From a phage, in the NCBI GenBank assembly GCA_036611895.1, contig GCA_036611895.1_4766.1: 64,000 nt of DNA. The stretch is one strand, 5' to 3'. Positions 567 to 58,600 of the stretch are shown one piece after another. The notes beneath the pieces are model-generated. The model saw only the letters and a list, made by a program, of their open reading frames with translations, was not told where the DNA came from and ran no database searches. Position 1 is the first letter of the stretch, and each line of letters starts with the position of its first letter. A program made the translations under genes and the position numbers.

Positions 567-828
567 TATATGCCTTTTTCAATATACGGTTGGCATAGTG
601 CACAATCTTCTCTGAGTCGTACACCGAAGAGTTTCCAGGTTTACCATTACCCATACGGGCAGCAGCATTTCGCCACAGAGCTTTAAAGGCACAACCTTCA
701 TCGAAGGTCATGCCTAGTGCTTGAATAATATCCTCACACTCTGCTTGGTATGGCTCTTGCTCTTTCCGTTGAGGGTGCTTAACTGGTACTACATACCAGT
801 TATTCAATCCACCGGAGAGCTTAGCCAT
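544..828 (-). CDS. hypothetical protein (94 aa)
   Basis: ORF track; tightly packed between exonuclease and next gene, same strand as flanking genes. Confidence 0.4.
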   Translation of the reverse strand: MAKLSGGLNNWYVVPVKHPQRKEQEPYQAECEDIIQALGMTFDEGCAFKALWRNAAARMGNGKPGNSSVYDSEKIVHYANRILKKAYNENNQQP

Positions 829-1133
829 TATTTATCCTTAGGAATCATGTTTGCCTGGAACTCTGGTTCAGACATCAGACCCAGGTTGCTGAGAGACAGG
901 TAAATGATGTCTTTCAAGTCAACCGAGGTATCGAAACGCTGGTCCAGACTAATCTTCAGGGAATGATTGGCACGGGCCAAATCTTTATAGGTCACATAAG
1001 GTTCATCAGTGAGCAACATTGTGTTCATGGTAAGCAGGGAACCATCATCCACTTTAGGAAGTTGGAAGACTACCTGTGCTGCTACCATCCAATGATATTT
1101 TCTGACTACAGTTTCTTTAGTACTTTTGGTCAT
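828..1133 (-). CDS. hypothetical protein (101 aa)
   Basis: ORF track; 4-nt overlap with downstream DNA polymerase gene start, typical coupled arrangement. Confidence 0.45.
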   Translation of the reverse strand: MTKSTKETVVRKYHWMVAAQVVFQLPKVDDGSLLTMNTMLLTDEPYVTYKDLARANHSLKISLDQRFDTSVDLKDIIYLSLSNLGLMSEPEFQANMIPKDK

Positions 1134-3709
1134 GCGAATGCCTTTTGAATTATTTGATGAACTTCTTCTGGGGTAGCGTGATTTGGAATTTCAATCTCGT
1201 TAGCCCACGTTGGGTAAAACAAGGATAGTTCCCCACCCAAACCAACCTCTGGATGAGCAATATCAGGATGATCTTGCCAGTTAACGGCTTCAACCAAATA
1301 CTTGTTCGTGAACTGCAGGGTATCCATGTTGTCACGAATCATGAAGTACTGAGCATCATGAATATGAATACTAGGACGAATATCTAACCTGAACTCACTG
1401 GCTCTGACTTTACGCATAAACTCCGAACCAGCACGGTTATTCAGTAGACACCAGCTTTGCCCTAAAGCATTACCAGCAGTTCTGCCTTCTGCTTCTGCTT
1501 CATACGGAGTCTTACATGTCCCACGTAATACCTGAGCCAGTAAAGGAGTACGCACTCTCAATCCGAATGCGGCAGTAACATAACCAGTTTTGGCAGCTTC
1601 GTCTAGCTTAGCCTGAACCCACATGTCACTAACTACGTAGAGATCGTGATAACGTTTCTCTGTAGTCTTAGCCTTTTCTTCAGAGAAGCCACAGTTTTTC
1701 ATTAAGCCCATATACGTACCACCATAGGTAAGCAAGAAGGTTGGAGCCTTCGAGTCACTACGCAATGATTTGTACTTATGCTGAATGGAGTTAATGGATT
1801 CTACCGTATCTTCTATGTCTGGCATCTGCTCGCCAAAGTAAGCATATGCACGGAGACTATGCCCATCGTAGCCATCGGTATATACCTTAAGCTTCTGTGG
1901 GTCTTTAGTAGTCAGTGCAGAGATTCTGTCTTCCAGCGAGGCGAAATCCAAGCCGCAAAATATCCAGCCTGGAGGAGCTTCGAAGCATTTCTTAATCTTC
2001 TTGGCATATTTAGAGCCGGATGGAATTGTTTGTAGATTTGGCTCTGAAGCCGATAGCCTACCGGAGACTGTGCCTCCCAGATTGAGGTTACCGAATAGGT
2101 AGTGCCAGCCATCCGGTCCCGGTTGGGCATTCCTGAAAGCTGGTATAAAGCTAGTGATAATCTTATCCACGAGCTTATAGTCGATAAGTGCATTGAGCAG
2201 TTCCTTAACATCTTCACTCTGCGTATGGGTACGCAGTGCTTTAATAGTGTCACCGTCAGTAGCAGGTTGCTTGCTCTTAGTAAGACCAAGAACAGGTAAG
2301 CCAATATAGTCAAATAACAGCTTCTGTAACTGTGGACCAGAGTTAGGATTAAACTCGATATCACAGTCAGCAAGCGTTACCTGCTTCTTCTTCAACTTAG
2401 CATTCTTATCGTCTACCCATTCCTGACGAAGCATCAGGGTGAAATTCTTCATGAGCTTAGACTCACGAATAGTTTTCAGAGCCTGGTTCCTGTCAGTTTC
2501 CATCTCCTTAGCCACTTGGTTAACGGTATCCATATTCATGGGCATACCGGTTAACTGCATCTGGATGATGTCTTCGCAAGCTGGTTTAAAGATGTTGTTG
2601 TAAACATCTAGTTGGTCATCAGCAATGAGAGTATCCCAGTGCTTCTCATAGGTGTACCAAGTACACAAACCATCAATGAGGTTGTAACGTAACAGTTGCT
2701 CATTAGGAATAAGACGAATGTCTTTAATATCATCCTGAGCATAGTTACCAGCATACTCCTGAGCCTGATCTTTCAGACTAAGGTGATTACCAGCACAACT
2801 ATTAGTAGCCAGGTAGGTGATTAACTTAGTACAGTCCCAGTTACGTAGCATGATATCCATGCCATGCAGTAAGCCTTCCGTATCAATCAGATTATCCATG
2901 AATAACTGATAGATAAGCACATACACGTCATAGCTAATGTTGTGATACATCTGACGTTGTGTGTACTTAATGAAGAACTCACGCAGAAGATTTCGAACAA
3001 TATCGTTTCTGTTGATACGCCCATAAGGTGCTTCAGTAGCTCCAGGAATTGGCTCGTAGTCCACATTAAAGGCTATGCCTTGTGTCTTACTCCAACAGAA
3101 TGTAATTGTCCCTATACCGGCGTTATAGTGCTTTAAACCGAATGCTTCAATGTCTATAGCCAGAGGCTTATTCATCTCAAGCAGTTGGTCTAGCCAGGCT
3201 TTAATCTTCTCTGGGGTATCCGGATAGGCTTCAAACTCAATGATTCCCTGACCTGGTTCAGCATACTGTCCACGTATGTGGTTAAGTAATGCATCCATAC
3301 CCTGAGCAATCTTGGATTTTACTACAGGAGGATCATAAAAGACCTGCCTGTAGCTAGGTGCATAGATAACCTTCTGCTTACCCCATACTGAGTCACAAAC
3401 ATAGCCGAGGTTAGCCTCTGCTTTAGCTTCTTTAGTCAGTATTTTGAAGTAATCAGAATCGGTACAGATAATGTATTGAGTCTCTGCATCATCCAGTACT
3501 TGTTGCAACTCCTGCTGTATGAACTCCTTAATCTCCCTTGCAGGAGTCTTCTTCTTGCCTGGGGCAGAATGAAGTTCAATGAAGATGAAATCTTCCATAC
3601 TAAGGTCATTAGGCAGCAGGTAGGTTTTAATCATCTCCTCCCTTCGGATTTGATGACCGAGGATAGCAATAGGATACTTACCCGTATCTTGAGAGGTGAT
3701 GTAACGCAT
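1130..3709 (-). CDS. DNA polymerase, family A (Pol I/T7-like) with 3'-5' exonuclease domain
   Basis: 859 aa. Exo I motif LAIDIEAFGL; pol motif A GLDFASLEDRI, motif B RSDSKAPTFLLTYGG, motif C IHIHDAQYF. Confidence 0.9.
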   Translation of the reverse strand: MRYITSQDTGKYPIAILGHQIRREEMIKTYLLPNDLSMEDFIFIELHSAPGKKKTPAREIKEFIQQELQQVLDDAETQYIICTDSDYFKILTKEAKAEANLGYVCDSVWGKQKVIYAPSYRQVFYDPPVVKSKIAQGMDALLNHIRGQYAEPGQGIIEFEAYPDTPEKIKAWLDQLLEMNKPLAIDIEAFGLKHYNAGIGTITFCWSKTQGIAFNVDYEPIPGATEAPYGRINRNDIVRNLLREFFIKYTQRQMYHNISYDVYVLIYQLFMDNLIDTEGLLHGMDIMLRNWDCTKLITYLATNSCAGNHLSLKDQAQEYAGNYAQDDIKDIRLIPNEQLLRYNLIDGLCTWYTYEKHWDTLIADDQLDVYNNIFKPACEDIIQMQLTGMPMNMDTVNQVAKEMETDRNQALKTIRESKLMKNFTLMLRQEWVDDKNAKLKKKQVTLADCDIEFNPNSGPQLQKLLFDYIGLPVLGLTKSKQPATDGDTIKALRTHTQSEDVKELLNALIDYKLVDKIITSFIPAFRNAQPGPDGWHYLFGNLNLGGTVSGRLSASEPNLQTIPSGSKYAKKIKKCFEAPPGWIFCGLDFASLEDRISALTTKDPQKLKVYTDGYDGHSLRAYAYFGEQMPDIEDTVESINSIQHKYKSLRSDSKAPTFLLTYGGTYMGLMKNCGFSEEKAKTTEKRYHDLYVVSDMWVQAKLDEAAKTGYVTAAFGLRVRTPLLAQVLRGTCKTPYEAEAEGRTAGNALGQSWCLLNNRAGSEFMRKVRASEFRLDIRPSIHIHDAQYFMIRDNMDTLQFTNKYLVEAVNWQDHPDIAHPEVGLGGELSLFYPTWANEIEIPNHATPEEVHQIIQKAFA

Positions 3710-3718
3710 AGCTTTACC

Positions 3719-4249
3719 TTAGAAAATCAGATGGGAAGCTGCATAGTACTCAATAGAGGGAAGAATCTTCTCATACTGCTTTATTGCCATGGGATCACCA
3801 GCAAGTGTCCAGGCTGCTTCACGAGTACGGGGCAGTTCCTTGTACTTACCAGTCTGGTCTTGAGCTACCAGGCACTCAGGCAGAGCATCACGCACATCCT
3901 GATAGGACATACAACCACGAACCAGGCGATATACAGTCTGGTTCACAAGGTGTACTTCCATAATCAGACGACTGGAGGCTTTCAGATACTTGTCCATTGC
4001 AGGCCAAAGTTCTGGATTAAGTGTTAATCGTTCACCGTAGGTTGGAGGTCTCGCAGCATTAGAACGCTGATAGAACTCCCCTTGATAAAGAAATCCAGCC
4101 GATACATCAATACCATTGATACGGTCATTCTTATCAATGATACCGTTTAACACACTATCAATACGAACCAGTTCTGCTAAGAACAGGTGTTTGACTATAT
4201 CGCTGCTATTGGCAACTTGACCAATAGTCGCTGAACCAATCTGAGGCAT
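3719..4249 (-). CDS. hypothetical protein (176 aa)
   Basis: ORF track; fills gap between helicase and polymerase genes on same strand. Confidence 0.5.
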   Translation of the reverse strand: MPQIGSATIGQVANSSDIVKHLFLAELVRIDSVLNGIIDKNDRINGIDVSAGFLYQGEFYQRSNAARPPTYGERLTLNPELWPAMDKYLKASSRLIMEVHLVNQTVYRLVRGCMSYQDVRDALPECLVAQDQTGKYKELPRTREAAWTLAGDPMAIKQYEKILPSIEYYAASHLIF

Positions 4250-4259
4250 ATATCCTCCC

Positions 4260-5570
4260 TTAGAAAGTTAGACCACCATACTTACTGGCAAGATTGCCAT
4301 AGAACACTACTCGCTTACGTGCACGGGATACAGCGACGTAAAGCAGACGGGCAACCATATCAGGTTGGCGACAGCTTGAGAGGTCATCTGCATCAATAAA
4401 GATTGTGTCGTAAGTAGAGCCTTGTGATTTATGGACAGTACATGCATGAGTAGCACGCAGGTCTGGAATGGTTTCTTTAAGACGGAAGTAAGGTTCCCAG
4501 TTCTTCTCCTTACCCAACCACTTAACCAAACGGTTGAAGTATTCTGGGTCAGTAGGTACTGGAACTTCACTTACAATACCACCATAACCAAGGTCCAGAG
4601 TACTATCACGAACTTCCAGTTCCAGGTCACCTGTAACTGGAATCATGCGAGTACTGCTATCCTGGTCAATGAGTTTTACGTCTTGCTCGATAGATAGACG
4701 GTCTTCCACACCTAAGCGAACAGCAGAGTTAGATACTAGTTGTTCACCAATGGAGTACTCACCCACGTAGCCATTAGCTTCACGAATGTAGTTATTGTAA
4801 TTAATAACCTGGTCATTCGTATAAGCAACAATACGGCTATTGGTAGGTTGAGTGAAGTGACTGAGAACCAGTTTCTCCATCTCTTCCCCCTGTACCCAGT
4901 CAATAATGCCCGGAATACATTTAATAGGCAGGAAGCCTGTCTTACCTTCCACCGTATCACGTAATTGCTGGTGCAATGCTTTGAGTTCCGGTGCATCGGT
5001 ACGCATCTGTTCAGTCAGATAGTGTGTTGGGATATTCCCTGCATACACTGGAGACTTATTCTCTTTAACAGGCAGAAGCTGAGAAGCATCCCCTACGAAT
5101 ACCAGCTTACACTGGTGAGTACCTTCACGAGCATACTTAAGTAACTGACGGTCAATCATGGATGCTTCGTCTACGAAGATGATTTTGTTCTTCTTAATAT
5201 TGAATGATTTAGACGGTACGACATTAGCCTCACCAGTCTTAAAGTCATTCTTAACAATCAATCCCTGGAAGGAATGATAGGTAGATGTTGGACGTCCAGT
5301 AGCCTGAGCCAGAACTTCGGCAGCCTTGTTCGTGGTCGCAGTCATAACAACTTCGTTATACAGGGGCTTGGTTCCCATAAGGGAGCAAGTTTCCATATAT
5401 GCAGGCATTGTGTCATCAATGAGGTGCGACATCAGGAATGTCTTACCAGTACCACCTGGGCCTGAAATTCCAAATTCGGTAGCATTAGGGTCGAGCAGGA
5501 AGTCGAAGAACTCCTTCGCAACCGCTTCTTGCCCCTTGTTCAGTGGGGCTTTGGTAGGTTTGGAAAACAT
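4260..5570 (-). CDS. SF1B DNA helicase (Dda/RecD-like)
   Basis: 436 aa. Walker A GPGGTGKT; motif II IIFVDEASMI; C-terminal HKSQGSTYD helicase motif. Confidence 0.85.
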   Translation of the reverse strand: MFSKPTKAPLNKGQEAVAKEFFDFLLDPNATEFGISGPGGTGKTFLMSHLIDDTMPAYMETCSLMGTKPLYNEVVMTATTNKAAEVLAQATGRPTSTYHSFQGLIVKNDFKTGEANVVPSKSFNIKKNKIIFVDEASMIDRQLLKYAREGTHQCKLVFVGDASQLLPVKENKSPVYAGNIPTHYLTEQMRTDAPELKALHQQLRDTVEGKTGFLPIKCIPGIIDWVQGEEMEKLVLSHFTQPTNSRIVAYTNDQVINYNNYIREANGYVGEYSIGEQLVSNSAVRLGVEDRLSIEQDVKLIDQDSSTRMIPVTGDLELEVRDSTLDLGYGGIVSEVPVPTDPEYFNRLVKWLGKEKNWEPYFRLKETIPDLRATHACTVHKSQGSTYDTIFIDADDLSSCRQPDMVARLLYVAVSRARKRVVFYGNLASKYGGLTF

Positions 5571-5603
5571 TAAAATCTCCAGTAAAAAACCCTCCGTAGA
5601 GGG

Positions 5604-6059
5604 TTAGATGTAAGGGGTTAAATCTGGGGGAGTATAGTCTTTCCCTTTCATAACTTTCTTATTCTCATTGAAGACAGGTTCCCCATCTTCAAACTTAGAA
5701 TAGTTTGAGCGATTGACTTCAGCCAATGCTCCAGGGACATTCATCCCAAGGAAAGTACCGACGCCAGTTGCTGTAACAATCTGGTCTGCCAGTGAATCCA
5801 GCAGGTTGGTACTGGCGTCAATGCGATAAGCATCGTCATTACGTTTCATATGGTTTGCCAGATTTGTAATGGCATCTTGTGCACGTTGTAGCAATTCTGC
5901 ATCGTAGCTACCATTTGGATAAATGGTCTGAAGCATTTCTTCTACTTCTTCCAGATGACAACCAATCTGGGTACTAATGTTCTTACTCGTCGGATTCGGT
6001 ACGGCTTTTAGAAACCATTGCCGTGTGTTTTCCAGCGTACAAACGGATGAACTTGTCAT
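5604..6059 (-). CDS. hypothetical protein (151 aa); start may be downstream of annotated ATG
   Basis: ORF track; 5' end overlaps upstream HTH gene by about 77 nt in another frame. Acidic helical motif HLEEVEEMLQ; function not assignable. Confidence 0.4.
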   Translation of the reverse strand: MTSSSVCTLENTRQWFLKAVPNPTSKNISTQIGCHLEEVEEMLQTIYPNGSYDAELLQRAQDAITNLANHMKRNDDAYRIDASTNLLDSLADQIVTATGVGTFLGMNVPGALAEVNRSNYSKFEDGEPVFNENKKVMKGKDYTPPDLTPYI

Positions 6060-6378
6060 GCTCAGTCTCTTGGTTAAGGTGGCGATTGTTATATGCCTCC
6101 AGAATCAAGTCTCTTACATATGAGCGAATCTCATAAGCAGGACCAACTTGTTCTGACAGCCAATCAGCCACATGGGTTGGTAAAGGACGTAATACGTTTT
6201 CCATGAACGTCCGACGTGTGTCGGCTGGTTCAATGTTTAGAGAACGCAATCGCAAAGTAACTGTAGTTGGGTGAACCCCCAACGTCTTAGCGATAGTTGC
6301 GAGGGACAGACCAACAGCATTCATACGAATGATGTCTTCATCGGTTGCTTTGCGATTACTTCTGAATACTTTAGACAT
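5983..6378 (-). CDS. helix-turn-helix DNA-binding protein
   Basis: 131 aa. HTH-like segment LSLATIAKTLGVHPTTVTLRL; RBS GAGGAAA about 9 nt upstream of ATG. Confidence 0.55.
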   Translation of the reverse strand: MSKVFRSNRKATDEDIIRMNAVGLSLATIAKTLGVHPTTVTLRLRSLNIEPADTRRTFMENVLRPLPTHVADWLSEQVGPAYEIRSYVRDLILEAYNNRHLNQETEHDKFIRLYAGKHTAMVSKSRTESDE

Positions 6379-21539: not shown

Positions 21540-21656
21540 TTATTTACGTTTACGTTTACGTTTGGCCTCTGCCTCACGTTTGAGAGCTTCGTTAATACGC
21601 TTTAACACTAGTTCTCTGTGAGCATAGAAGTCAGCTACTGCACGATGATTAATCAT
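21540..21656 (-). CDS. candidate 38-aa highly basic micro-protein (C-terminal KRKRKRK)
   Basis: Hand translation MINHRAVADFYAHRELVLKRINEALKREAEAKRKRKRK; ATG overlaps stop of upstream RNAP II small-subunit gene (ATGATTAA). Below ORF-track size cutoff. Confidence 0.3.
   Translation of the reverse strand: MINHRAVADFYAHRELVLKRINEALKREAEAKRKRKRK
21543..21563. repeat. (ACGTTT)3 perfect tandem hexamer repeat
   Basis: tttacgtttacgtttacgttt read directly; encodes the KRKRKR tail of the micro-ORF on the minus strand. Confidence 0.8.
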
Positions 21657-22467
21657 TGTTTACTAGCTCCTTATCAGCGAACTCCAGTACAGCTTTGTTG
21701 TAGCTGGTTCCCTGATAGTTGATGTGGTAGCCGCAGGCATATGTACGCCCACGTTTGTCATACTTGTGAGCCAGTGAGAAGTTATTACCTTCTTTGGTTA
21801 CTAACTCCATTACTTCCTTAGCTGTACGGCTGTACTTCTCAAAGGCTTTAACACGTTTCTCATAGTCCTGACGGGTTTCACCCTCTTTGGGTTTATCCAT
21901 GTTAGGACGAGAGTCTTTTACATAGTTAGCAACGTCCCAGTTAATACAGAGACGTTGGTTATTCATACGGTTGATGTGGTCAAGACAGACATCCATCTCA
22001 TGATGGTTCTTCTTGAGGATGATGCTACCTCTGCTTTCATAGTAACCAGTATCACGATTACACAGAACAGGCTTAGGAGCACTTACGATAGGCAATGGAT
22101 ACTGGAATGCTTCCAGTTCCATCTGAACATCTTCACTAATCTCATAGATAACACCGAACTTGTCGATGGTAGGGTCATAGTTGAAGCAGTCATTCTCTGC
22201 CATCTTATATAGGCAGTCAGCGATGTACTGAGCATCATCTGAGTGACTCATGAGAGAGCCAATCATAGTTTGGATGTCAGCACGTTTATGTAAGGCAATC
22301 TGCACCATTGCATCAATGAGCAGCTTATAATCAATTTCTAAATAGGCAGCGAATGCCTTAAAGTCAATTTCTTCGGAGTCCTCGAATTCCTTCCTCATGC
22401 GAGGGAGTAATTGATTCTTGTTGAAAAGGATTTCAAGTCGCTTCTGATGTTCAATAGATGAGTACAT
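21649..22467 (-). CDS. phage RNA polymerase II, N-terminal-type subunit
   Basis: 272 aa. KYDKRGRTYACGYHINYQG resembles the T7 RNAP DxRGR region; directly upstream of the catalytic subunit. Confidence 0.7.
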   Translation of the reverse strand: MYSSIEHQKRLEILFNKNQLLPRMRKEFEDSEEIDFKAFAAYLEIDYKLLIDAMVQIALHKRADIQTMIGSLMSHSDDAQYIADCLYKMAENDCFNYDPTIDKFGVIYEISEDVQMELEAFQYPLPIVSAPKPVLCNRDTGYYESRGSIILKKNHHEMDVCLDHINRMNNQRLCINWDVANYVKDSRPNMDKPKEGETRQDYEKRVKAFEKYSRTAKEVMELVTKEGNNFSLAHKYDKRGRTYACGYHINYQGTSYNKAVLEFADKELVNND

Positions 22468-22494: not shown

Positions 22495-22520
22495 ACCAAA
22501 AGCTGCGGAGCAGCTATTAC
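22495..22520 (-). promoter_or_regulatory. vRNAP-type hairpin promoter candidate (P-d), 45 nt upstream of RNAP II gene
   Basis: agctgc-gga-gcagct: 6-bp stem, GGA loop, same architecture as the three hairpins at 26.98-28.16 kb; preceded by aaccaaa. Confidence 0.45.
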
Positions 22521-26969: not shown

Positions 26970-27000
26970 TCATCCATAAGACGCGGAGCGTCTTGGTTTT
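26970..27000 (-). promoter_or_regulatory. vRNAP-type hairpin early promoter (P-c)
   Basis: tccataa-gacgc-gga-gcgtc-ttggtttt: 5-7 bp stem with GGA loop; conserved flanks shared with P-b. Confidence 0.6.
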
Positions 27001-27299: not shown

Positions 27300-27325
27300 T
27301 CCAATAGAAGCGGAGCTTCTTGGTT
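27300..27325 (-). promoter_or_regulatory. vRNAP-type hairpin early promoter (P-b)
   Basis: tccaata-gaagc-gga-gcttc-ttggtttt; matches the N4 early promoter hairpin as I recall it (GAAGCGGAGCTTC). Confidence 0.6.
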
Positions 27326-27785: not shown

Positions 27786-28109
27786 TTAGTCTTTAGTCAG
27801 GATGTCAATTACTTTGGAATATTCTGCGTTATAGATCCGAGCGTTCTCTGAATCCTTGCAGAATTCCTCGATACTTTTCTTACGCAGAGTCTCAGTCATA
27901 GCTGTTTCCTCTGCCAGTTTATTAACAAAGGTATGCATTTCTAATTTAGTACGAATGGCTTGTTTCTCTGCCATAGTACTAACATATGAATTAAGCATAC
28001 CTACTGCTTTAGTTGCTGTGCTGAATGTATCTGCAACAGTAGTAGCAGCTGAGTTAACAGTACCAAGTAAAGTTCCTGCGGTCATACGTACAGTAGCTTG
28101 AGTAGTCAT
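27786..28109 (-). CDS. early protein (107 aa), first gene downstream of P-a
   Basis: ORF track; about 49 nt downstream of P-a hairpin centre. Confidence 0.5.
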   Translation of the reverse strand: MTTQATVRMTAGTLLGTVNSAATTVADTFSTATKAVGMLNSYVSTMAEKQAIRTKLEMHTFVNKLAEETAMTETLRKKSIEEFCKDSENARIYNAEYSKVIDILTKD

Positions 28110-28145
28110 GATGATAGCTCCAATAGTTGATGATAGGACGACATG

Positions 28146-28168
28146 TCCATAACATGCGGAGCATGTGT
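28146..28168 (-). promoter_or_regulatory. vRNAP-type hairpin early promoter (P-a)
   Basis: tccataa-catgc-gga-gcatg: same stem/GGA-loop architecture and tccataa flank. Confidence 0.55.
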
Positions 28169-28343
28169 AACGTGTAAGGTGGGGTAGGGTAGTGGCTACA
28201 CCGTCAACATACCGGGGGGGCTAGTTGAGTGTAAGGGTGTAGCCCCAGCCACACCACTATGGCTGTACATAGCTATCACAATTTTGACATGCAAAAATAT
28301 TATAGGCACTATCTCTATAAGCAGATAACTTTGAGGTACTAAC

Positions 28344-28472
28344 ATGAAAGATGGATGGGGTAACTACAATCCTACAGACCCTGAGAACTGGCTTCACTTT
28401 ATTGCATGGGCTTGCGCTGTAGGATTCATAAGTATTGTGCTCTTATCACTGGTTCTATCTTATCTGTAAATA
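28344..28472 (+). CDS. candidate 42-aa single-pass membrane micro-protein on the opposite strand
   Basis: MKDGWGNYNPTDPENWLHFIAWACAVGFISIVLLSLVLSYL; GAGGT 6 nt upstream of ATG; TTGACA hexamer about 55 nt upstream; hairpin follows stop. Confidence 0.3.
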
Positions 28473-28473
28473 C

Positions 28474-28497
28474 TATGGGGGATAGCTATTTATCCCC
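28474..28497. terminator. hairpin (possible bidirectional terminator) between micro-ORF and paralog array
   Basis: ggggata-gctatt-tatcccc stem-loop read in sequence. Confidence 0.35.
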
Positions 28498-28667
28498 TAT
28501 TCATCATAGCGTTTAATACCTAAAACCTTGTATAGCTTACCCTTTACAAGCAATGGTCCACCTACTTCTACGAAAGCTAGGCTGTGTACTATCACTGGTT
28601 CAAGTAAGCCTTTTACTGTTATATACCACATATTAATCCTTATAAGCAGTTAAATAGGAGGAAGTGG

Positions 28668-29072
28668 TTAGTAGCTATCTGTGATACCAAAGGACATATG
28701 ATAACCACCTGTGTTTACATCCCAGGGTTGCGACAAATTAATATCCCAAGGAAGTGTCTTTCCAGATTCAAGTATTCTTATAGACCTGAAGGAGTTACCC
28801 TCTTTTATCATACTGGTTTTTACTGTTACCGGTAGGAAGATATGGAAGTAATCCCCTTCTGGTGCAAGGTAAGTATCTCCTTCATTGAGGGTAACTATCT
28901 TTGCTTTGCTGTTAGTGAGAAGTCTATGCCCCTGTGCAAAATCTGCTAACTCTCCTGGTTCCATTATTAGTGTAGAACTCCCATAGGTCATAATATGGAT
29001 GATTGCTTTTTCTGGTTCAGAGGAATAGTGCAGTAAATCTGTACCATTCATCCCTAAGAGTTTAACGTTCAT
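28668..29072 (-). CDS. paralog-array protein P6 (134 aa)
   Basis: Core STLIMEPGELADFAQGHRLLTNSKAKIVTLNEGDTY aligns with the other five paralogs. Confidence 0.55.
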   Translation of the reverse strand: MNVKLLGMNGTDLLHYSSEPEKAIIHIMTYGSSTLIMEPGELADFAQGHRLLTNSKAKIVTLNEGDTYLAPEGDYFHIFLPVTVKTSMIKEGNSFRSIRILESGKTLPWDINLSQPWDVNTGGYHMSFGITDSY

Positions 29073-29075
29073 ACT

Positions 29076-29360
29076 TCAGTACCTTTCCTTATAGATGGGG
29101 GTGCTATCATCGAATGATAGGATGTACTTGTCTGTATTAAGATGCCAAGGACTAAAGCTACCCTGCCAGGACATAGGTGTTTCTGGTTCAAGTAGATGTA
29201 CTACCGAATTCTTATTGTATAGGAAGAGTAATCCTTGTATCTCATGTAGAGACTGTTCATCTGGAACCAAGATAAGTACATCAGCATTCAGGTCAGCTAT
29301 TTCTTTATGGTGGATGTAATTTTCCCCATTAGGCTCTGGATAAATTTTACTGATAACCAT
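29076..29360 (-). CDS. paralog-array protein P5 (94 aa)
   Basis: Core DVLILVPDEQSLHEIQGLLFLYNKNSVVHLLEPETP. Confidence 0.6.
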   Translation of the reverse strand: MVISKIYPEPNGENYIHHKEIADLNADVLILVPDEQSLHEIQGLLFLYNKNSVVHLLEPETPMSWQGSFSPWHLNTDKYILSFDDSTPIYKERY

Positions 29361-29680
29361 TAGAGACTCTCGTCGCTAGATAAATATGAGGTAGAAGGGT
29401 AGAGGGTAATAAGTCTACCGGTAAGGGTAGTAACTACCGTAGGTTCAGCAGTTGATAAGATATATACTCGTGCAAACTCAGATATCTCAACTGATGTATC
29501 TATCTTAGTGAATGTAATGGGTATGCCTAACATTAGACATGTACCTATGAACTCATCTGCTTCTTCATTTGGTTCATATAGGATAGTAGTTCCATCCATC
29601 TTACCATTTAAACAATCTTGTTTAGTTACTTTGCTGCGATAGCAACTTGTACTTAGAGCAACTAATGAGTAGAAGTGCAT
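29360..29680 (-). CDS. paralog-array protein P4 (106 aa, most diverged)
   Basis: Core TTILYEPNEEADEFIGTCLMLGIPITFTKIDTSVEI. Confidence 0.5.
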   Translation of the reverse strand: MHFYSLVALSTSCYRSKVTKQDCLNGKMDGTTILYEPNEEADEFIGTCLMLGIPITFTKIDTSVEISEFARVYILSTAEPTVVTTLTGRLITLYPSTSYLSSDESL

Positions 29681-29683
29681 GGC

Positions 29684-29998
29684 TTACTTCCTTACATAGT
29701 AATAATGGTATTCCTCATTCTCATGACTACTATCCCATTGGTAATCATCAGATACCAACATGAAAGGCAGGGCGTCATATGCACTGCTATCGGCATAGAC
29801 GGAAGGAGGAATGATACATACAACCTTACGATCATTACCTGCTAAGAATAGTTGACCTCTTACTTCATGGTAGTCCTCTAGAGTAGGAACCAGGATTACA
29901 TGCTGAGGATTGCTATCTATCACTTCTTCTAAAGTGAAGTCTGTTGTGTACAAGGATTCCCCTTTAATAAAACTGGGGGCGGTCAGTATGAATTTCAT
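29684..29998 (-). CDS. paralog-array protein P3 (start at internal ATG with AAGGAAGGAAAA RBS)
   Basis: Core HVILVPTLEDYHEVRGQLFLAGNDRKVVCIIPPSVY; ORF track 29684..30073. Confidence 0.6.
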   Translation of the reverse strand: MKFILTAPSFIKGESLYTTDFTLEEVIDSNPQHVILVPTLEDYHEVRGQLFLAGNDRKVVCIIPPSVYADSSAYDALPFMLVSDDYQWDSSHENEEYHYYYVRK

Positions 29999-30359
29999 GA
30001 TGGATTTTCCTTCCTTTAGGAATAGGTCTGAAGTAAACGGAAAGTGTTTTATTAAAGAGGTTATGTTCAACAATCATTTCCCAGCCTGGTACTTTATAGA
30101 ACCTGACTCCTGGGAAGAATGTTTCGAAGTCTGCATACTCAGTAAGGTCATACACAACTGGTTCAGTAAGTATACGCGTATTGATTTGCAGATTACTTAA
30201 GAAAAATGAACCAACTATCTCGTGGGATTCTTCGCAGTCTGGTAGGAAGACTATTTGTTTGGATAGGAACTTACTAACTATCTCTGGTTCCCCTAGGTAG
30301 TATGGTTCCTGCTTACGTAGTACACCAGTAATATCAATATCAAAAGCGTAGATGCTCAT
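29964..30359 (-). CDS. paralog-array protein P2 (131 aa)
   Basis: Core QIVFLPDCEESHEIVGSFFLSNLQINTRILTEPVVY; strong RBS CAGGAGG upstream. Confidence 0.6.
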   Translation of the reverse strand: MSIYAFDIDITGVLRKQEPYYLGEPEIVSKFLSKQIVFLPDCEESHEIVGSFFLSNLQINTRILTEPVVYDLTEYADFETFFPGVRFYKVPGWEMIVEHNLFNKTLSVYFRPIPKGRKIHHEIHTDRPQFY

Positions 30360-30374
30360 ATTTGCATACCTCCT

Positions 30375-30410
30375 GAAAAAGAAATGGGGTAGAGCCTCTC
30401 GACTCTACCC
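30375..30410 (-). terminator. intrinsic terminator inside the paralog array, just upstream of P2 RBS
   Basis: ggggtagag-cctctcga-ctctacccc (9-bp stem) preceded on plus strand by aaaaagaaa. Confidence 0.5.
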
Positions 30411-30559
30411 CTTACCGTTTTCTATCACGGGTCAGTTCATCACCCTAGATACATGTGTATCGTTAGCCTACTAGGTAGGAAAGGAGCCGGGCAACCCTGA
30501 CTGTAGAAGTTATTAACTCTTTACGAGTACCGCCACTGTCTACTAGGCGGCATGACTAA

Positions 30560-30850
30560 TCACATCGTCACCGTCATCCGAACACTGTCTTTGCTTCGCC
30601 TGACGGAGACACTATGAGGTAATTTTGTGAAGAACACAAGAGCTGATGGCCCCTTTTCTAAAGAGTAAGTTTCTCTTGGTTCTAAGATTTTAATGCCCGG
30701 ACGATTCTCTAAAAGCATCATCCCAGCTAATTCATGGTAGGTATCTTCATTATGGGTAATAATGATATCACCTGAAAGAAAACCAGCCTTAGTGTGGTCT
30801 AGCTCCCTGTATTCATCTTTAGAGCCTGAGACTTTCATATAGATTCTCAA
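30560..30850 (-). CDS. paralog-array protein P1 (96 aa; TTG or internal ATG start)
   Basis: Core DIIITHNEDTYHELAGMMLLENRPGIKILEPRETY; first codon is TTG with AAGGAG upstream, in-frame ATG 4 codons later. Confidence 0.55.
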   Translation of the reverse strand: MRIYMKVSGSKDEYRELDHTKAGFLSGDIIITHNEDTYHELAGMMLLENRPGIKILEPRETYSLEKGPSALVFFTKLPHSVSVRRSKDSVRMTVTM

Positions 30851-31021
30851 AGGTTACTCCTTTTGGGAATAGGGTCATCGGAACAATACATACTATTTAG
30901 TATCATGAACTTTTTCTATATCATGACTAAAGTGTAACTGTATGGTATCGTTTCTTCAAGGGGTATCTCACCCCAAGAAAAGAATCTTCTTTAATAGACA
31001 TAACTTTGTAGCGAGATAAGT

Positions 31022-31711
31022 ATGAGTGAACTAACTAAGCAGCAGATTATTAATGCCTTACCTGCTAACTTCAAAAACAGTGTTACCCAGGAGTTGGTAG
31101 ACACGATTAACAACATAACCCAAGACCAACTGGTTGCTGAGTCCTTTCGTGAAAACTTTATCTCCTACTCTGGTGTAATGAAGGAAGGTAAGTTTAAGAC
31201 ACAGGACTACATGAATGCAGTTCAGTATGTGACTTACAAACATATGGGCTACTCAAATAAGGAAGCCTACTTTAAGACGTTCCCTAATCGACAAGCAGAA
31301 CTTGTTGCACGAGGAACCAGTGAGAAAGATATTAGTGCTTATGTATCTGCCTACCACAGGGGTAAGTTAGTTAACCTCATCATGGAACAAAGTTTGGTTC
31401 CAGTGTGGATTGTGAACCAAGACAATTATCAGAAGGCTATCAACGTTCAGGTTGAACTGATGACTACAGCAGCAAGTGAGAAGGTAAGATGTGATGCAGC
31501 TAACTCTATCCTTACTCACTTAGCTAAACCAAAAGATCAGGTAACAAATATCAATCTGGACTTAAGAGAGAACTCCGGATTAACTGACCTCAAGGCAACA
31601 CTTGCTGCATTAGCTGAACAGCAGATTAATGCAATCAATAGTGGTGTACCTACCAAAGAGGTTGCTGGTTCTAAACTAGTACGTGCAGATGAGGACATTA
31701 CAGATGTCTGA
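31022..31711 (+). CDS. putative terminase small subunit / DNA-packaging protein
   Basis: 229 aa immediately upstream of and overlapping large terminase gene; position only. Confidence 0.35.
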   Translation: MSELTKQQIINALPANFKNSVTQELVDTINNITQDQLVAESFRENFISYSGVMKEGKFKTQDYMNAVQYVTYKHMGYSNKEAYFKTFPNRQAELVARGTSEKDISAYVSAYHRGKLVNLIMEQSLVPVWIVNQDNYQKAINVQVELMTTAASEKVRCDAANSILTHLAKPKDQVTNINLDLRENSGLTDLKATLAALAEQQINAINSGVPTKEVAGSKLVRADEDITDV

Positions 31712-52606: not shown

Positions 52607-55600
52607 TTGAACAGGAATCATGCTATGTCAACATTTGACCGTCTGGCAGGTTTCGCAGACAGCATCACTACTGCTAAGCAAGTCGATGTCTCTACTGCAA
52701 CCTCTCGGAAACAAGCTGAACAAGGGCAAAGCCCTTTCCAATTAACTCCTCAGAATGCCTACCAATTACAGGCAGGACGTGCCGGTGACTTAGGTGCTGG
52801 TGCATTTGAACCAGGTTCTATTCAGGCAGATTTTACTAATGCCTCCCCCCTTGAAATCGTAAACAAGTATGGCAATGAGCAAGGAATGGACATTCTCAAT
52901 GCTCGTGTCAATGCAGCTAATTCTGTTCGTCGTGATTTAACTAAGAGTCGTACTTATGGTGAAGCACTTGGTGATACCCTTTCTGGTGTTGGTCTTGGTG
53001 TTGCTAATACCCTTGGGGGCATTGCTGCTCTTGGCACAGGTTTGGTCAATGATAATGCCGGGGCAACCATTGCTTCCAGTCTTGACTGGTTGAATAAAGG
53101 TGTACACAACCTACAGTCTGATGCACTGAATGCTCGCCGTAATGTAGTACAGAACCAGAACGTAATATCTGCACAGGAAAATGAGAAACAGTATAAGCAG
53201 GATATTGCTGAAGGAGAAAGTGAACTCGTTGCTTCCTTGTCTCGCATTGGTCGTGATGCTTACGATTCTGTCGCTAACACTTTGTCTAATGGCATGGCTG
53301 CTACAGATGGTCTGGCTGAGGGTGTTGGTTCACTGTTTACTGGTGGTCCACTTATCCGTGGTGTATCTGCACTAGGTAAGGTAATGGTAGGTGGTGATAA
53401 AGCTGTTAAGGGCATTACCTTAGCTGCTGAATTAGGTTCACGTCCTGCACGAATTGCACAGTCTGCTGGTCGTGTTGCTGCACCTGCTATAGCAATTGGT
53501 GGTATGGAAGCTGGTGGTGCATACCAACAGACTGCTAATGAAATTATGGAAATGCCATTCAGTGAACTGGCTGCTAAATCTCCTGTATACCAACAGCATA
53601 TTAAAGACGGTTTATCTACTGAAGAAGCACGACGTCAGACTGCATCTGAAACAGGTATCACTGCTGCTGGTTTAACTGCTCCAGTTGCTGCTCTTACTGC
53701 TCCACTGGTATCCAAGTTTGAACTTAATCCACTTAAGGTAGGTTCACTGGCTGGTGCTGGTTCTAACATGCTGCGAGAGACTGTAGAAGAAGGTATTCAG
53801 TCTGGTACAAGTCAGTTTGCACAGAACAAGGCAATCCAAGGTAATGTTGATGCATCTCGTGACATCCTCAAAGGTGTAGGCGAACAAACTGGTCTTGGTG
53901 CATTGTATGGCTTTGGTTCTGCTGGAGTTGCTCAAGCTCCTGGTGCAACTGTTAAGGCTGCTGGTGCTGCCGTTGGTCCTGCTGTACGTACTACCCTGGC
54001 TGGTGCTTCTCTGGCTGGTAAGGCATTAGCAAAAGTAGCTTCTCCTATTACTAACATCCTGGTTCAACGTGGGGAAGAAGTTGCTAAGCGTAATGAACAA
54101 GCATCCCCTGTATCTGATGCTACGGTTAACGCTGCTGCACAGGAAGCTACTGCTCAGGCAGAACAAGCACAAGCAACTGTACAGGAAGCAGTAGATGCAA
54201 TGGATATTTCTCCAGAAGAGAAAGCTGCTGCTACTCAGTATGCTGCTGACTTAACTCAGGTAATGAAGTTTGATCCAGTAGAACTGGAACAAGCTAGTCC
54301 AGTAGTCCGTGAAGCTGTTTCTGGTTCCACTAACCGTGTTGAAGCTATTCAGAAGATGGCTGACCTGGTTAATACTGCTGAAGACCCTAACGTTCAAATG
54401 GAAGCTGCAATCCAGATGTATGACAACATTATGTCTATGGATAGCTTCATTAACCGTGATCCAGGTGCATTAGCTAATCTGGAACAGGGTTCTCCTGCTG
54501 CTAATATTGTTGATCAGTTCTCCGGTCTGATGGCTAATGTACAGAATACACCGAAGGTACTCCGTGCATTCCGTGCCATTCATTCCATGATTCAGGAACA
54601 GGCAGAAGCAGGTAAACTGAAAGCTACTGAAGAAGCTAACCAAGCCCAAGCAAACAACATTGCTATGGCTGCTGATATGTCTCCAGAAGTGCTGGACGCA
54701 GATTCAGTGAACATGGTTCTGAAACATGCAAGTGAAGGTAAGATTACATTGGGGAATCGTCAGCGTGCTGCCCTGCAATCTGCTGCTGCTCTATTGCAAG
54801 GAGCACGGGAATTTGACGCTAAAGCAGAAGAACTAGGCTTACGTCCTCAAGACATTGTTAGTAAACAGATTAAAACCGACGAATCTCGTTCTAATGAAGG
54901 TCAGTACTCTGCGTTGCAACATGCTAAACGCATTCGTTCTGCGTACAACTCTGGTAACTTCGATTTGGCTTCCGCTTATCTCGACGACTTTATGAAGTTC
55001 GCCCAGCACATGCAGAATAAGGTCGGAGCGTTGAATGAGCATCTGATTTCTGGGAATGCGGATAAGAATAAGTCTGTCCATTATCAGGCTCTTACTCCCT
55101 CGCGTGAATGGGTACGTAGTCGTACTGGCCTCGGTGTCAATCCGTATGATACCAAGTCTGTTAAGTTTGCCCAACAAGTAGGACTGGAAGCCAAGACCGT
55201 AGCTGATATTGCTAACGCACTTGCTACGGCTTACCCGGAGCTTAATGTTTCTCATGTGAAAGTTACCCCATTGGATTCACGTCTGGACAAGCCTGCTGCC
55301 CAGGTAGTTAAAGAGTTCCGTCAGGGCAATCTTGATGCTGCTCAATCCCAACAGACCAATGAACCAGTGAATCAGGTTGATGAAACTCCTGTTACAAAAC
55401 AGGAACCAGTTACCCCTACTGTACAGACTAAACCCTCTGTTAGTGAAGCTGTTAAAACAGAACCCACTATTAAAGAGTCTAAACCACAGGCTGTAAAAGA
55501 ACCTGAGAATCAGTCTGAATCTTCTATCCCAGCTGGGCCTGAAATGAAGACTGCTGAGTTCACCGGTAAACAGCAAGCCTCATATATGCAGTTAGGTCAG

Positions 55601-58600
55601 TACTTTGCTTACAACGGTAAAGACTTTATTGCTATTGGCAAAGATATAGAAGGCACTCGTGCTGTTCCTGTTACTGGTGGTAAGACTATTGTTATTCCAG
55701 GAGAAACTACTGTTACAGGTAAAAGTGACGTACTGACTTCCTTTAAGTATGGGGAAACAAATGTACCTTACGTTATGACTCCAGAAGGTCGAATCTTTAG
55801 TCTACGTAGTACTCGTGAGGTATGGGCTACCCCATCTCAGGCTCGTACAGATTTCCTTAACTATGTTCGGAATACATTCCCTCAACCGGAATCTGCTCCG
55901 GTTAATGTAGAGGAAACAAAGTCTGAATCCGAAAAGCCAAATGATACTACCCTTACTAATGAGGATACCATCGAGCAGTCTACTGAATCTGAAAGGGATG
56001 CTTATGTAAAAGAGAATACTATTTCTCAAGAAACTCTTAATAAGTATGGTGACCGTAGGGAGAGTCCATGGCTCTTTGCTGATGGTACTGTTGTTGGTTC
56101 CAATGGTGACCATATCAGTCTGTCCGATGTATTTGGTCATGATGGGTATCGTGACATGTCTCTGGATACTGGTGCTGTGCGTTCTACCTTCTACAAGGCC
56201 AAGTCTGGCCATCCTGAGGATGTGGACTTCGTGTCGCTGCAGCTGTTTGATAATCAGAAGCTGACTGCTGAACAATTCAATACCGTTCAATCTTTCGTTG
56301 AAGCCAATAATGCACATATTCTGGTTGGTGTAGATACATCTGGGCTTAATACCAATAACGTTGAGGAAGATGAAGTATCACTGGCTCAACTGAAAGCAGA
56401 CCATACCGTGGGCGGTGAACCTCTATCTCAAATGGAAACAGTGTTCCCTGTCTATAACAACGAAAAGACACCGAACCAGTTCCTTAAAGCATTTTCTCTA
56501 CCAGAAGAACCTAAGTCTCGTACCATTGGTTCTGAATCTCCTTTAACTGATGTTAAGAAAGCACTGTCTTCTGCTGCTCGTTTTGAAGCATTCACTCAAA
56601 AAGAAAATAACGCTCTCACAAGTGATGTGATTAAGCGTTATCAGGACTTGTTTGATTTTGGTGAAACTCTGAAGACTACTCTGTCTGACCGTCTGGCTAA
56701 GTTCCTTGCTAATAAGAATGTTGGTAAACGTTTTGCAGAGGGTACTGAGGCTAACCGTTGGGTAGGTGGCAAACTGCTTAATATCGTAGAGAAAGACGGT
56801 GACACCTTTAAGTTCAATGACCAGTTGTTGGAGACTGCTGTACTTGCTGGTCTGCAATGGCGACTGACTGCTACACAGAATGCTGCCATTAAAGACATGA
56901 AAGACGTAGCTGCTATTACTGGTGTAGAAGCATCTCTGCTACCAGAAGGCATTTTGGCTGACTTCGAAAATGCTCAGACATTGGTTGAAGCTACTAACTC
57001 ACTGGCTCAAAAGATTGAATCCTATTGGGGTTTAAATCGTAATCCTAATGCACCACTGGGTTATACCAAGGGTATCCCAATGGCAATGGCTACAGAGATT
57101 CTGTCTTCTCTCATTGAAATGGGTGAAGTTAAAGAGTCCATGCTGGATGTATCTGAGATTGACCCAGAATCTAACAAGACTGTTGGTCTGTATACCATTG
57201 AGAAGTTAGACGATAACGATGCCATTAATAAATTCCCTACTGCTATTGAAGAAGCTGTTCTCGTAGAACCAGTAGAGAAACTGTACCTGGGTGATGATAT
57301 TCCTTCCGTGGCTCAAACTCAGTTACGTAATCCGGCTGTTAAGAATACCCCAGAACAGAAAGCTGCTCTTAAAGCAGAACAGGCTACTGAGTTTCGTGTA
57401 CATATGCCGATGGTTAACTTCTATGAAGCAATGGGTCGTGACAACATTCTGGAATTGATGGGTGCTGGTGCTCTTAATCCTGAGCTACTGAATGTGAATA
57501 CTGCTAAATCTCTGGAAGGTAAAAACCTGTCCGTGTCCATGGCATATGATTCCTTGTTTGGTGTAATCAATCAGATTAAGGAACAGGAGAATGGGCTGGA
57601 TACACCTATTCACTATGGTTACAACATGACCCGTGTAGGTCGTATGCAGATGCTTGGTAAGAACAATCCACAGTCCAGTAAGCTGGTACGTGAAGCAATT
57701 CTACCAACCTTCTCTACCATCGACTTGAGTAATGAAAACAGCCAAACGTTCTCTGACTTCCAGTTAGGTCTGGCTCAGGCATTGGGCATCAAAGTTCATA
57801 AAATGTCTCGCGAAGTTATGTCAGATGAACTGACTAAAGCTCTGGAAGGTAAACTGAAACCTGCCGTCGATATGATGGTTGAGTTTGATAAGTCTGGGCA
57901 CTTACCTACTAATGCAGTGGATATTCTGAAGACTTCCTTGGGGAATGATAAATCATTCGTAGCTCTTATGGCTCTTATGGAATATGCCCGTTACCTGAAT
58001 AGTGATGACCGTGCTAACTTTAATACCCCACTGTACGTTGAAGCTGATGGTGTAACCAACGGACCAATCAACGCAATGGTACTGATGACGGGTGGTAAGT
58101 TCACTTCAGACTGGATTAAGAATACTGCTAAGGGTGGTTTGTTCTTCGGTAAAGCTGGTAAGACCATGAATGAGCATCATTCGCATGAGGACAGCGTTGA
58201 CCTGTATGAAGCATCCACTAATAGTCTGCAACAGGCACTGAATGAATTGCGTAATACTTATCGTAACAACGTTCCTGTTACGAACCAGATGAAGCATCTT
58301 CAGAAGTTAATGGACCTGTTCATTAAAGACTTCAATCTTAATGAAGATGGTACTCTGGACCTGAAACGTGGTATCGCTAAAAACCCACTGACTATTACCA
58401 TCTATGGTTCTGGTGCTCGTGGTATTGCAGGCAAGATGGTTAGTGCAATTACTGATACCATCTACGAACGCTTCAGCGACGTTCTGCAAGCCCGTGCTGC
58501 TGACCCTAGCATTTCTCCAGCTATGGCTATGTTTGGTAAAGAGGCTGCATCTGAAGCTGATGCTCAGGCTATGCTGGATACCTTCCTTACTTCTATGGAA

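Follow-up and report, generated by a model that had tools for sequence, protein, structure and literature searches.

A fast-evolving, Schitoviridae-restricted family of small proteins, split by a conserved structured spacer, at the right genome end of an N4-like phage

Phages N4 and G7C carry, at the right end of the genome, a run of rightward genes (gp70, gp71 and gp72 in N4; gp70, gp71, gp71.1 and gp71.2 in G7C) that diverges from the small terminase gene gp69 and that, in G7C, is followed by the terminal-repeat region. While these genes are annotated as hypothetical proteins in dozens of genomes, nowhere in the literature we searched are those of N4 and G7C treated as one paralogous family or given a function. 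In N4, transcription runs rightward in the early and middle classes and leftward in the late class, the left end of the DNA is injected first, and entry is not complete until the machinery for middle transcription is in place (PMC4496689). Here we report on the counterpart of this module in a 64,000-nucleotide stretch of phage DNA (GCA_036611895.1, contig GCA_036611895.1_4766.1; hereafter the window), where six minus-strand genes, P6 to P1 in their order along the array, occupy positions 28668-30850. We show that their products form a single superfamily confined to Schitoviridae, with a predicted fold for which we found no match, and that a structured spacer, probably a leader or non-coding RNA, splits the array. 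The unification and the spacer are what is new.

The array sits at the same site as the N4 and G7C genes. It diverges from the small terminase gene (31022-31711, plus strand, from the list of open reading frames, or ORFs), its first two products are homologs of gp70 and gp71, and it lies ahead of the terminal repeat; the window also shares with N4 and G7C a conserved spacer after gp70. An all-against-all comparison covering 12 phages equates P6 with gp70, P5 with gp71, P4 with gp71.1 and P3 with gp71.2, whereas P2 and the fused P1 belong to two families that N4 and G7C both lack. An assignment to the N4-like phages, made earlier from the sequence of the window without database searches (the original prediction), is borne out by nucleotide matches to G7C-like coliphages and by agreement in gene order: Gamaleyavirus (Schitoviridae; G7C-like, N4-like coliphages) gives the best match to the region, at ~85-95% nucleotide identity, and full coverage of the region was found in no database record.

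All six proteins belong to one superfamily, built on a compact alpha/beta domain of ~90-100 aa. In hhalign comparisons of family profiles, P6 matches P2 at 91.5% (E 9e-7), P4 matches P2 at 87.5% and P5 matches P4 at 67%, with P2 as the central node of the homology network. P1 and P3 make up a second group, in which a relative of P3 matches a P1-type protein (BLASTP 5.5e-6), and proteins of phage KP8 bridge the two groups. A jackhmmer search seeded with P4, run over 107 array proteins and 381 decoy segments from elsewhere in the window, recruited 6/6 array members and 0/381 decoys; P5 joined in round 2 and P3 came last, in round 7 (E 1.3e-6). Profile comparison and iterative search thus agree with the original prediction that the six are diverged tandem paralogs, P3 being the weakest link. 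Because one automatic alignment of the six proteins with their database matches put P1 and P3 out of register, a profile of the first group only (P6, P5, P4 and P2) was used for the library search; an exhaustive search of 1.84 billion representatives with this profile returned 21 clusters, all of the same group.

The shared core that had been noticed in the window was recovered by proper alignment, with MAFFT L-INS-i on 61 sequences and with a second aligner, and includes an invariant Gly. Its extent had been underestimated: what was described as a core of about 35 aa, flanked by extensions unrelated between copies, is in the aligned region a homology spanning nearly the whole ~90-aa domain, and the extensions are largely divergent parts of that one domain, the C-terminus of P1 matching P2-type proteins. 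The proteins have no family match in Pfam or NCBIfam, and the remark that the family could not be recognised still applies, no relative having been located in Pfam, NCBIfam or PDB.

For the fold, an AlphaFold2 model of P4, for which the alignment was more diverse, reached a predicted local distance difference test score (pLDDT) of 90.2 and a predicted template modelling score (pTM) of 0.82; it is compact and alpha/beta, with a strand-helix-strand core. A model of P2 (shallow alignment, pLDDT 62) was set aside. When the P4 model was used for a fold search of BFVD, all significant matches were uncharacterised Schitoviridae proteins, often several per genome, from Escherichia phages, Klebsiella phage KP8, Achromobacter phages JWAlpha, JWDelta and Axy and, more weakly, Pseudomonas phage Zuri; they include a protein of the N4 gp71 type and a P1-type protein of phage IME11. 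Sequence and fold searches of PDB found no neighbour for P4. The closest solved fold is the RecA-like domain 2 of superfamily-2 helicases, an alpha/beta sandwich on which 70-85 of the 104 residues of P4 can be superposed, and one P4 strand with a terminal acidic pair resembles, by eye, a Walker B strand. We nevertheless rejected a RecA-like or P-loop NTPase domain, since a significant structural match together with Walker A and B motifs was not found. A cupin assignment for P1 (EutQ-like, PF05899) was likewise rejected, at 11.9 bits against a cut-off of 23.5 (E 0.18) and with a family model that is alpha/beta with two helices. No match of the array proteins to known anti-defence families (Ocr, Ard, Acr and similar) emerged in PDB, Pfam or NCBIfam, in searches that did not include dedicated anti-defence profiles.

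The six minus-strand ORFs are present in the ORF list at the positions first proposed for them, and each matches its own PHROG, with no function assigned there, at E 1e-39 or better, together with weak cross-matches between PHROGs. P6 (30560-30850; phrog_7213 at 1e-42) opens the array, pointing away from the small terminase gene, and no other member of the family is as widely conserved; P6 clusters with gp70 of N4 and G7C (BLASTP E<1e-10) and aligns with KP8 gp072 and JWAlpha gp87. Its start is most likely the TTG at 30850, as first proposed, giving 96 aa, because a GGAG lies six bases upstream and the resulting N-terminal MRIY resembles the MRLF or MRLY of N4, KP8 and JWAlpha. P5 (29964-30359, 131 aa; phrog_9160 at 1e-60), the first gene past the putative leader, has the ribosome-binding site (RBS) AGGAGG and is linked to N4 gp71 through G7C gp71 (BLASTP 4.6e-9) and by hhalign (92.5%). 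P4 (29684-29998, 104 aa; phrog_11661) overlaps the 3' end of P5 by 35 nt at its own 5' end; its start is most likely the ATG at 29998 and not that of a longer TTG ORF (29684-30073), because the alignment with phrog_11661 begins at residue 26 of the longer form. P3 (29360-29680, 106 aa; phrog_12099 at 4e-57) is the most divergent member, and its stop overlaps the start of P2 (TAATG). P2 (29076-29360, 94 aa; phrog_16338 at 2e-40) is cassette-like in its occurrence. P1 (28668-29072, 134 aa) is a fusion protein: phrog_12606 matches residues 1-97 and phrog_16338 residues 97-133, jackhmmer finds two domains (14-92 and 95-128), and the C-terminal part shares 53.6% identity over 28 aa with a P2-type protein of phage phiG17 (BLASTP). 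Read from these matches, P1 is a complete P1-type domain (1-97) joined to the C-terminal half of a P2-like domain (95-128).

Relatives show how such arrays are assembled. In a survey of 80 IMG/VR loci with the small terminase gene as anchor, members of the family occur solely upstream of that gene, at 1-6 per locus; the first member lies ~115-190 nt from the terminase start in enterobacterial lineages and farther away in Achromobacter-type loci. All detected members are confined to Schitoviridae and always diverge from the small terminase gene, while more distant Schitoviridae among these loci gave no sequence-level match to the family. The number of annotated genes at this site ranges from 3 in N4 (2 of them long enough for clustering) to 8 in Moonfish. 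Within Gamaleyavirus the order gp70-spacer-gp71-P4-P3 is constant, and what follows it varies in P2, in P1, in duplicated P1 and in two unrelated inserted families that we call F6 and F7; P2 is present in 5 of the 10 relatives compared, and many relatives lack P2 and P1. The genus combines a fixed proximal part (gp70, leader, gp71, P4 and P3) with a cassette-like distal part. Taken together, these comparisons show that the family grew by tandem duplication and was remodelled by gene gain and loss and by gene fusion; exchange between lineages has probably contributed to the remodelling as well.

Beyond the genus the same plan recurs with other contents. In KP8, ten rightward ORFs follow the small terminase gene and 5 of the 10 match the hidden Markov models of the family (PMC6950046), one of them a P1-type member (49 bits); in JWAlpha, from another subfamily, a gp70 homolog and a terminator precede four further genes, after which comes a truncated gp1 copy belonging to the right repeat. 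Like the window, both arrays contain a gp70 homolog, a homologous terminator-bearing spacer and several superfamily genes of ~100 aa. Unlike the window, they hold different sets of paralogs, KP8 adds unrelated small genes and a protein with an HExxH motif, and in JWAlpha extra sequence precedes the spacer.

The Pseudomonas phage LUZ7 provides a more distant likeness, with 29 small ORFan genes (gp87-gp115; positions 699-6346 of the locus examined) running rightward between a gp69-like gene and the right terminal repeat (PMC3715699). As in the window, these are partly paralogs of one another, with 26 intra-cluster BLASTP pairs at E<1e-3 (e.g., gp101-104 and gp105-109), but they show no sequence similarity to the window family (best E 0.15) and the proteins are shorter, at ~55-75 aa. 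No counterpart of the spacer was detected in LUZ7, where the sole scan used a sequence-only profile. The LUZ7 cluster was accordingly not counted in the superfamily, and neither were F6 and F7, none of them having a sequence-level relation to it. By analogy, Schitoviridae may generally tend to carry tandem paralog arrays at this end of the genome and to draw on unrelated families to form them.

The array genes are constrained protein-coding genes whose proteins evolve about 10x faster than the small terminase. Median nucleotide identity between the window and ten relatives is 94% for the small terminase gene and 95% for gp1, and in the array 89% for P6, 79% for P5, 84% for P4, 77% for P3, 85% for P2 and 83% for P1. 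Across the array genes the ratio of nonsynonymous to synonymous divergence (dN/dS) is 0.19-0.31, compared with 0.02 in the small terminase gene and 0.09 in gp1; dS is also higher in the array, and P3 has the highest dN and dS of the six. Reading frames are intact in dozens of genomes, and RBSs and translational coupling are kept. Variation is unevenly placed: among 55 sequences of the P2 type, entropy is concentrated in residues 8-25, the predicted first hairpin, and the core is almost invariant.

Between P6 and P5 lies the most conserved DNA of the region. The RBSs, internal terminator and 200-bp structured spacer attributed to the array by the original prediction were all located, and the spacer has a median identity of 98.7% compared with 77-89% in the flanking genes. 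It is present at 92-100% in 57 records, is recognisable in phage Moo19, and can be aligned with N4, KP8-like and Achromobacter phages; an nhmmer profile detects a single copy in each genome, invariably in this place and on the array strand. Rfam gave no match in 30360-30560 at E up to 1.

The conserved structured element (30377 to about 30559-30562, minus strand, ~185 nt) is a mosaic of fixed and variable parts. Read in the array sense, its first hairpin is H1 (30551-30530), which has a conserved loop of 11-12 nt and in whose stem one G-C pair is swapped to C-G. A variable hairpin, H2 (30528-30516), follows; it folds in 11 of 11 lineage variants despite their unrelated sequences, with an energy at or below the fourth percentile of shuffles in 10 of the 11. 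In some lineages the H2 loop carries ACCUCCUUA, resembling the 3' end of 16S rRNA. Next come a conserved block, AATAACTTCTACAGTCAG (30514-30497), with the family pattern AATAAC-N2-3-CTNCAG, and an anti-Shine-Dalgarno-like motif, CTCCTT (CTCC(T) across relatives), and downstream of these motifs further hairpins, read from the sequences, are lineage-specific. A strong intrinsic terminator hairpin with compensatory pairs (30411-30386) completes the element, its T-run ending 26 nt before the ATG of P5. RNAalifold, applied to a MAFFT alignment, kept only H1 and the terminator, and the internal hairpins were judged lineage by lineage.

The minimum free energy of the array strand is -64.4 kcal/mol (z -3.05), and the opposite strand reaches z -1.56. 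This stronger fold, together with the occurrence of G-U pairs, points to the spacer acting as an RNA of the same sense as the array genes. This RNA may be an attenuator, or a small RNA derived from the 3' UTR (untranslated region). Since the gap from the terminator to the P5 RBS is too short to hold a promoter, we infer that expression of P5 to P1 would depend on read-through of the leader.

The place of the array on virion DNA differs from what the window suggests at first sight. Position 1 of G7C maps to window position ~28251, and the terminal repeat of Mimir124 (401-403 bp), a phage whose left end matches the G7C ends verified by sequencing run-off (PMC11640937), maps to 27851-28253. The counterpart of the direct terminal repeat is thus 27851-28253 (minus strand), with the physical left end near 28251-28253 (PMC11640937), and many GenBank records start at ~27843-27853. 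The window is a permuted or collapsed representation of a Gamaleyavirus genome; in the virion the array sits at the extreme right of the DNA, with ~415 bp between it and the right terminal repeat, and this right end enters the cell last (PMC4496689). The claims that the array stands upstream of every early promoter and that it neighbours host-takeover genes therefore do not carry over to the virion: the end mapping makes the former an artefact of the permuted record, true only in concatemers, and traces the adjacency to circular permutation.

Promoters tell a similar story. Hairpins of the virion RNA polymerase (vRNAP) type with a GC-GGA-GC pattern, recognised from the features of the N4 promoters (PMC4496689), lie on the template strand at 28152-28166, 27306-27320, 26978-26994 and 22501-22515; the first of them falls in the terminal-repeat region, which also holds most of gp1 (27786-28109). 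The hairpin scan found none within 28668-31021, in keeping with the earlier statement that the array is outside the clustered vRNAP-type promoters. Given that the module is rightward, lies on the DNA that enters last and has no vRNAP promoter, it is probably transcribed at the middle stage or later, by phage RNA polymerase II (RNAPII), and not immediately on infection. In LUZ7, transcripts of the middle stage span the 29 small genes at the right end (PMC9163698).

Based on these observations, we suggest that the array is a right-end accessory module engaged in host interaction, acting at the middle stage or later and gated by its leader, a reading to which we give an even chance. P5 to P1 would be expressed only by read-through of the leader, serving as an attenuator or RNA regulator; the proteins would be dispensable, rapidly adapting binders of host or defence components, with the hypervariable N-terminal beta-hairpin as specificity surface and the conserved strand-helix-strand core as scaffold. 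We favour this reading because the family is restricted to one phage family, occurs in multiple copies, turns over its distal cassettes, has elevated dN/dS and presents a hypervariable loop on a conserved scaffold. The earlier suggestion that diversification is compatible with host interaction is in line with this, fast evolution and presence/absence variation both fitting such a role.

Several points weigh against it. No function, essentiality or expression is reported for N4 gp70-72 or G7C gp70-71.2 in the literature we searched, and we found no binding partner, phenotype or link to a defence system, so that the proposed role rests on evolutionary pattern and analogy. The dN/dS values, being below 1, do not demonstrate positive selection. 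A sigma-70 scan returned fewer sites than shuffled sequence and none usefully placed, and gave no promoter for the array. The spacer could be an independent small RNA or a DNA-level signal instead of a leader. As to the family itself, the link between P1 plus P3 and the other four is weak, with hhalign giving P=0.0025 and a probability of 12%, although the match falls exactly on the core first noticed in the window (1 of 300 column shuffles reached its score), and P1 and P3 types were not retrieved from the library of 1.84 billion representatives by the first-group profile.

A bolder form of the host-interaction reading, which we regard as possible but rather doubtful, is a two-part system in which a leader or small RNA gates a set of diversifying proteins of new fold, each neutralising a different host defence or host factor through its hairpin. 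The RNA, with an unpaired AAUAAC..CUNCAG block and the CUCCUU motif, might then detect when transcription passes between the RNA polymerases of phage and host, or it might work in trans.

The main rival to host interaction, given the location of the array and its conserved non-coding DNA, is a role of the module in genome replication, end processing or packaging (e.g., duplication or cutting of the terminal repeat, or priming of replication). The array does have the small terminase gene on one side and the right terminal repeat on the other, in a layout conserved across two subfamilies, and no DNA here is better conserved than the spacer and the intergenic region between terminase and gp70; expression at the middle stage, which is probable, would agree with such a role too, and from such timing the authors of the LUZ7 study proposed a replication-related role for its right-end cluster (PMC9163698). 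Core factors of this kind, however, are normally single-copy and slow to evolve, whereas here copy number varies, distal members are often absent and dN/dS is ~10x that of the terminase, and the G-U pairs in the spacer hairpins favour an RNA over a DNA structure. We therefore consider such a role unlikely.

Less probable still is the version first proposed, an immediate-early anti-defence or host-takeover battery working alongside the early genes. Tandem diversification is typical of counter-defence loci, and the array adjoins the early region in the permuted map and lies directly upstream of it in concatemers. On virion DNA, by contrast, it is ~70 kb from the entering end and has no vRNAP hairpin promoter, the N4 genome does not enter completely until the machinery for middle transcription exists (PMC4496689), and the LUZ7 right-end cluster appears at the middle stage (PMC9163698); immediate-early anti-defence is thus improbable for this array. 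That duplication merely left behind ORFs that are now decaying or neutral, with the spacer RNA as sole functional part, is highly improbable. Loss of distal members is frequent, one member carries half a domain by fusion and the family has no known function; yet dN/dS is 0.19-0.31 over many pairs, frames stay intact in dozens of genomes, RBSs and translational coupling are kept, the fold is confidently predicted and the family persists across subfamilies infecting different host genera.

Under the host-interaction reading or any other, six PHROGs, gp70 and gp71 of N4, and their relatives in Klebsiella and Achromobacter phages can now be viewed as one fast-evolving family and a single testable module. 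N4-like phages are used in therapy and serve as models of transcription, and their right-end genes have stayed "hypothetical" for nearly two decades. Three RNA polymerases act one after another in this system, in which the spacer is a candidate for a new phage RNA regulator. If the proteins inhibit host or defence functions, the distal cassettes could help to explain differences in host range among near-identical therapeutic phages; if they do not, the array is an ordinary accessory gene family.

The surroundings of the array have features of their own. The operon ends with an unrelated conserved 44-aa ORF (28497-28631, minus strand; phrog_19797 at 1.9e-28) that is annotated in phages pSb-1 and HK2, and the array is closed by a terminator-like hairpin (28478-28497, minus strand), with ~225 bp left to where the terminal repeat starts. 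In the stretch from the array to the repeat, a 41-aa ORF antisense to the array (28344-28469, plus strand) encodes a hydrophobic, transmembrane-like peptide, MKDGWGNYNPTDPENWLHFIAWACAVGFISIVLLSLVLSYL; it is annotated in HK2 and has no PHROG. On the other side, the divergent intergenic region between the small terminase gene and P6 (30851-31021) is 96.7% conserved and presumably holds promoters for both directions. Within it, a hairpin, GGGGT-GAGAT-ACCCC (30974-30960), lacks a T-run on both strands and may serve in regulation or be associated with a promoter. The small and then the large terminase genes follow on the plus strand from 31022, and the vRNAP itself (3751 aa) is encoded at 52607-63862 in the ORF list.

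Among the relatives, F6 proteins (104-110 aa), which are unrelated to the array family and contain the HExxH motif VHELNHF, are inserted among the paralogs of IME11 (locus 2053-2367, minus strand), KP8 (5853-6185), K57alpha1.2, PGN829.1, phiG17 and Moonfish and are lacking in the window; F6 may be a small metallopeptidase-like protein. At gene junctions in relatives, short C-terminal tails (YLSSDES, SYLTAYK, IPAYK and LLFNCL) recur across paralog families, a pattern that hints at boundary recombination shuffling the cassettes. The fourth vRNAP-type hairpin (22501-22515, plus strand; AGCTGC-GGA-GCAGCT) is far from the clustered three and stands just upstream of a 272-aa ORF (21649-22467).

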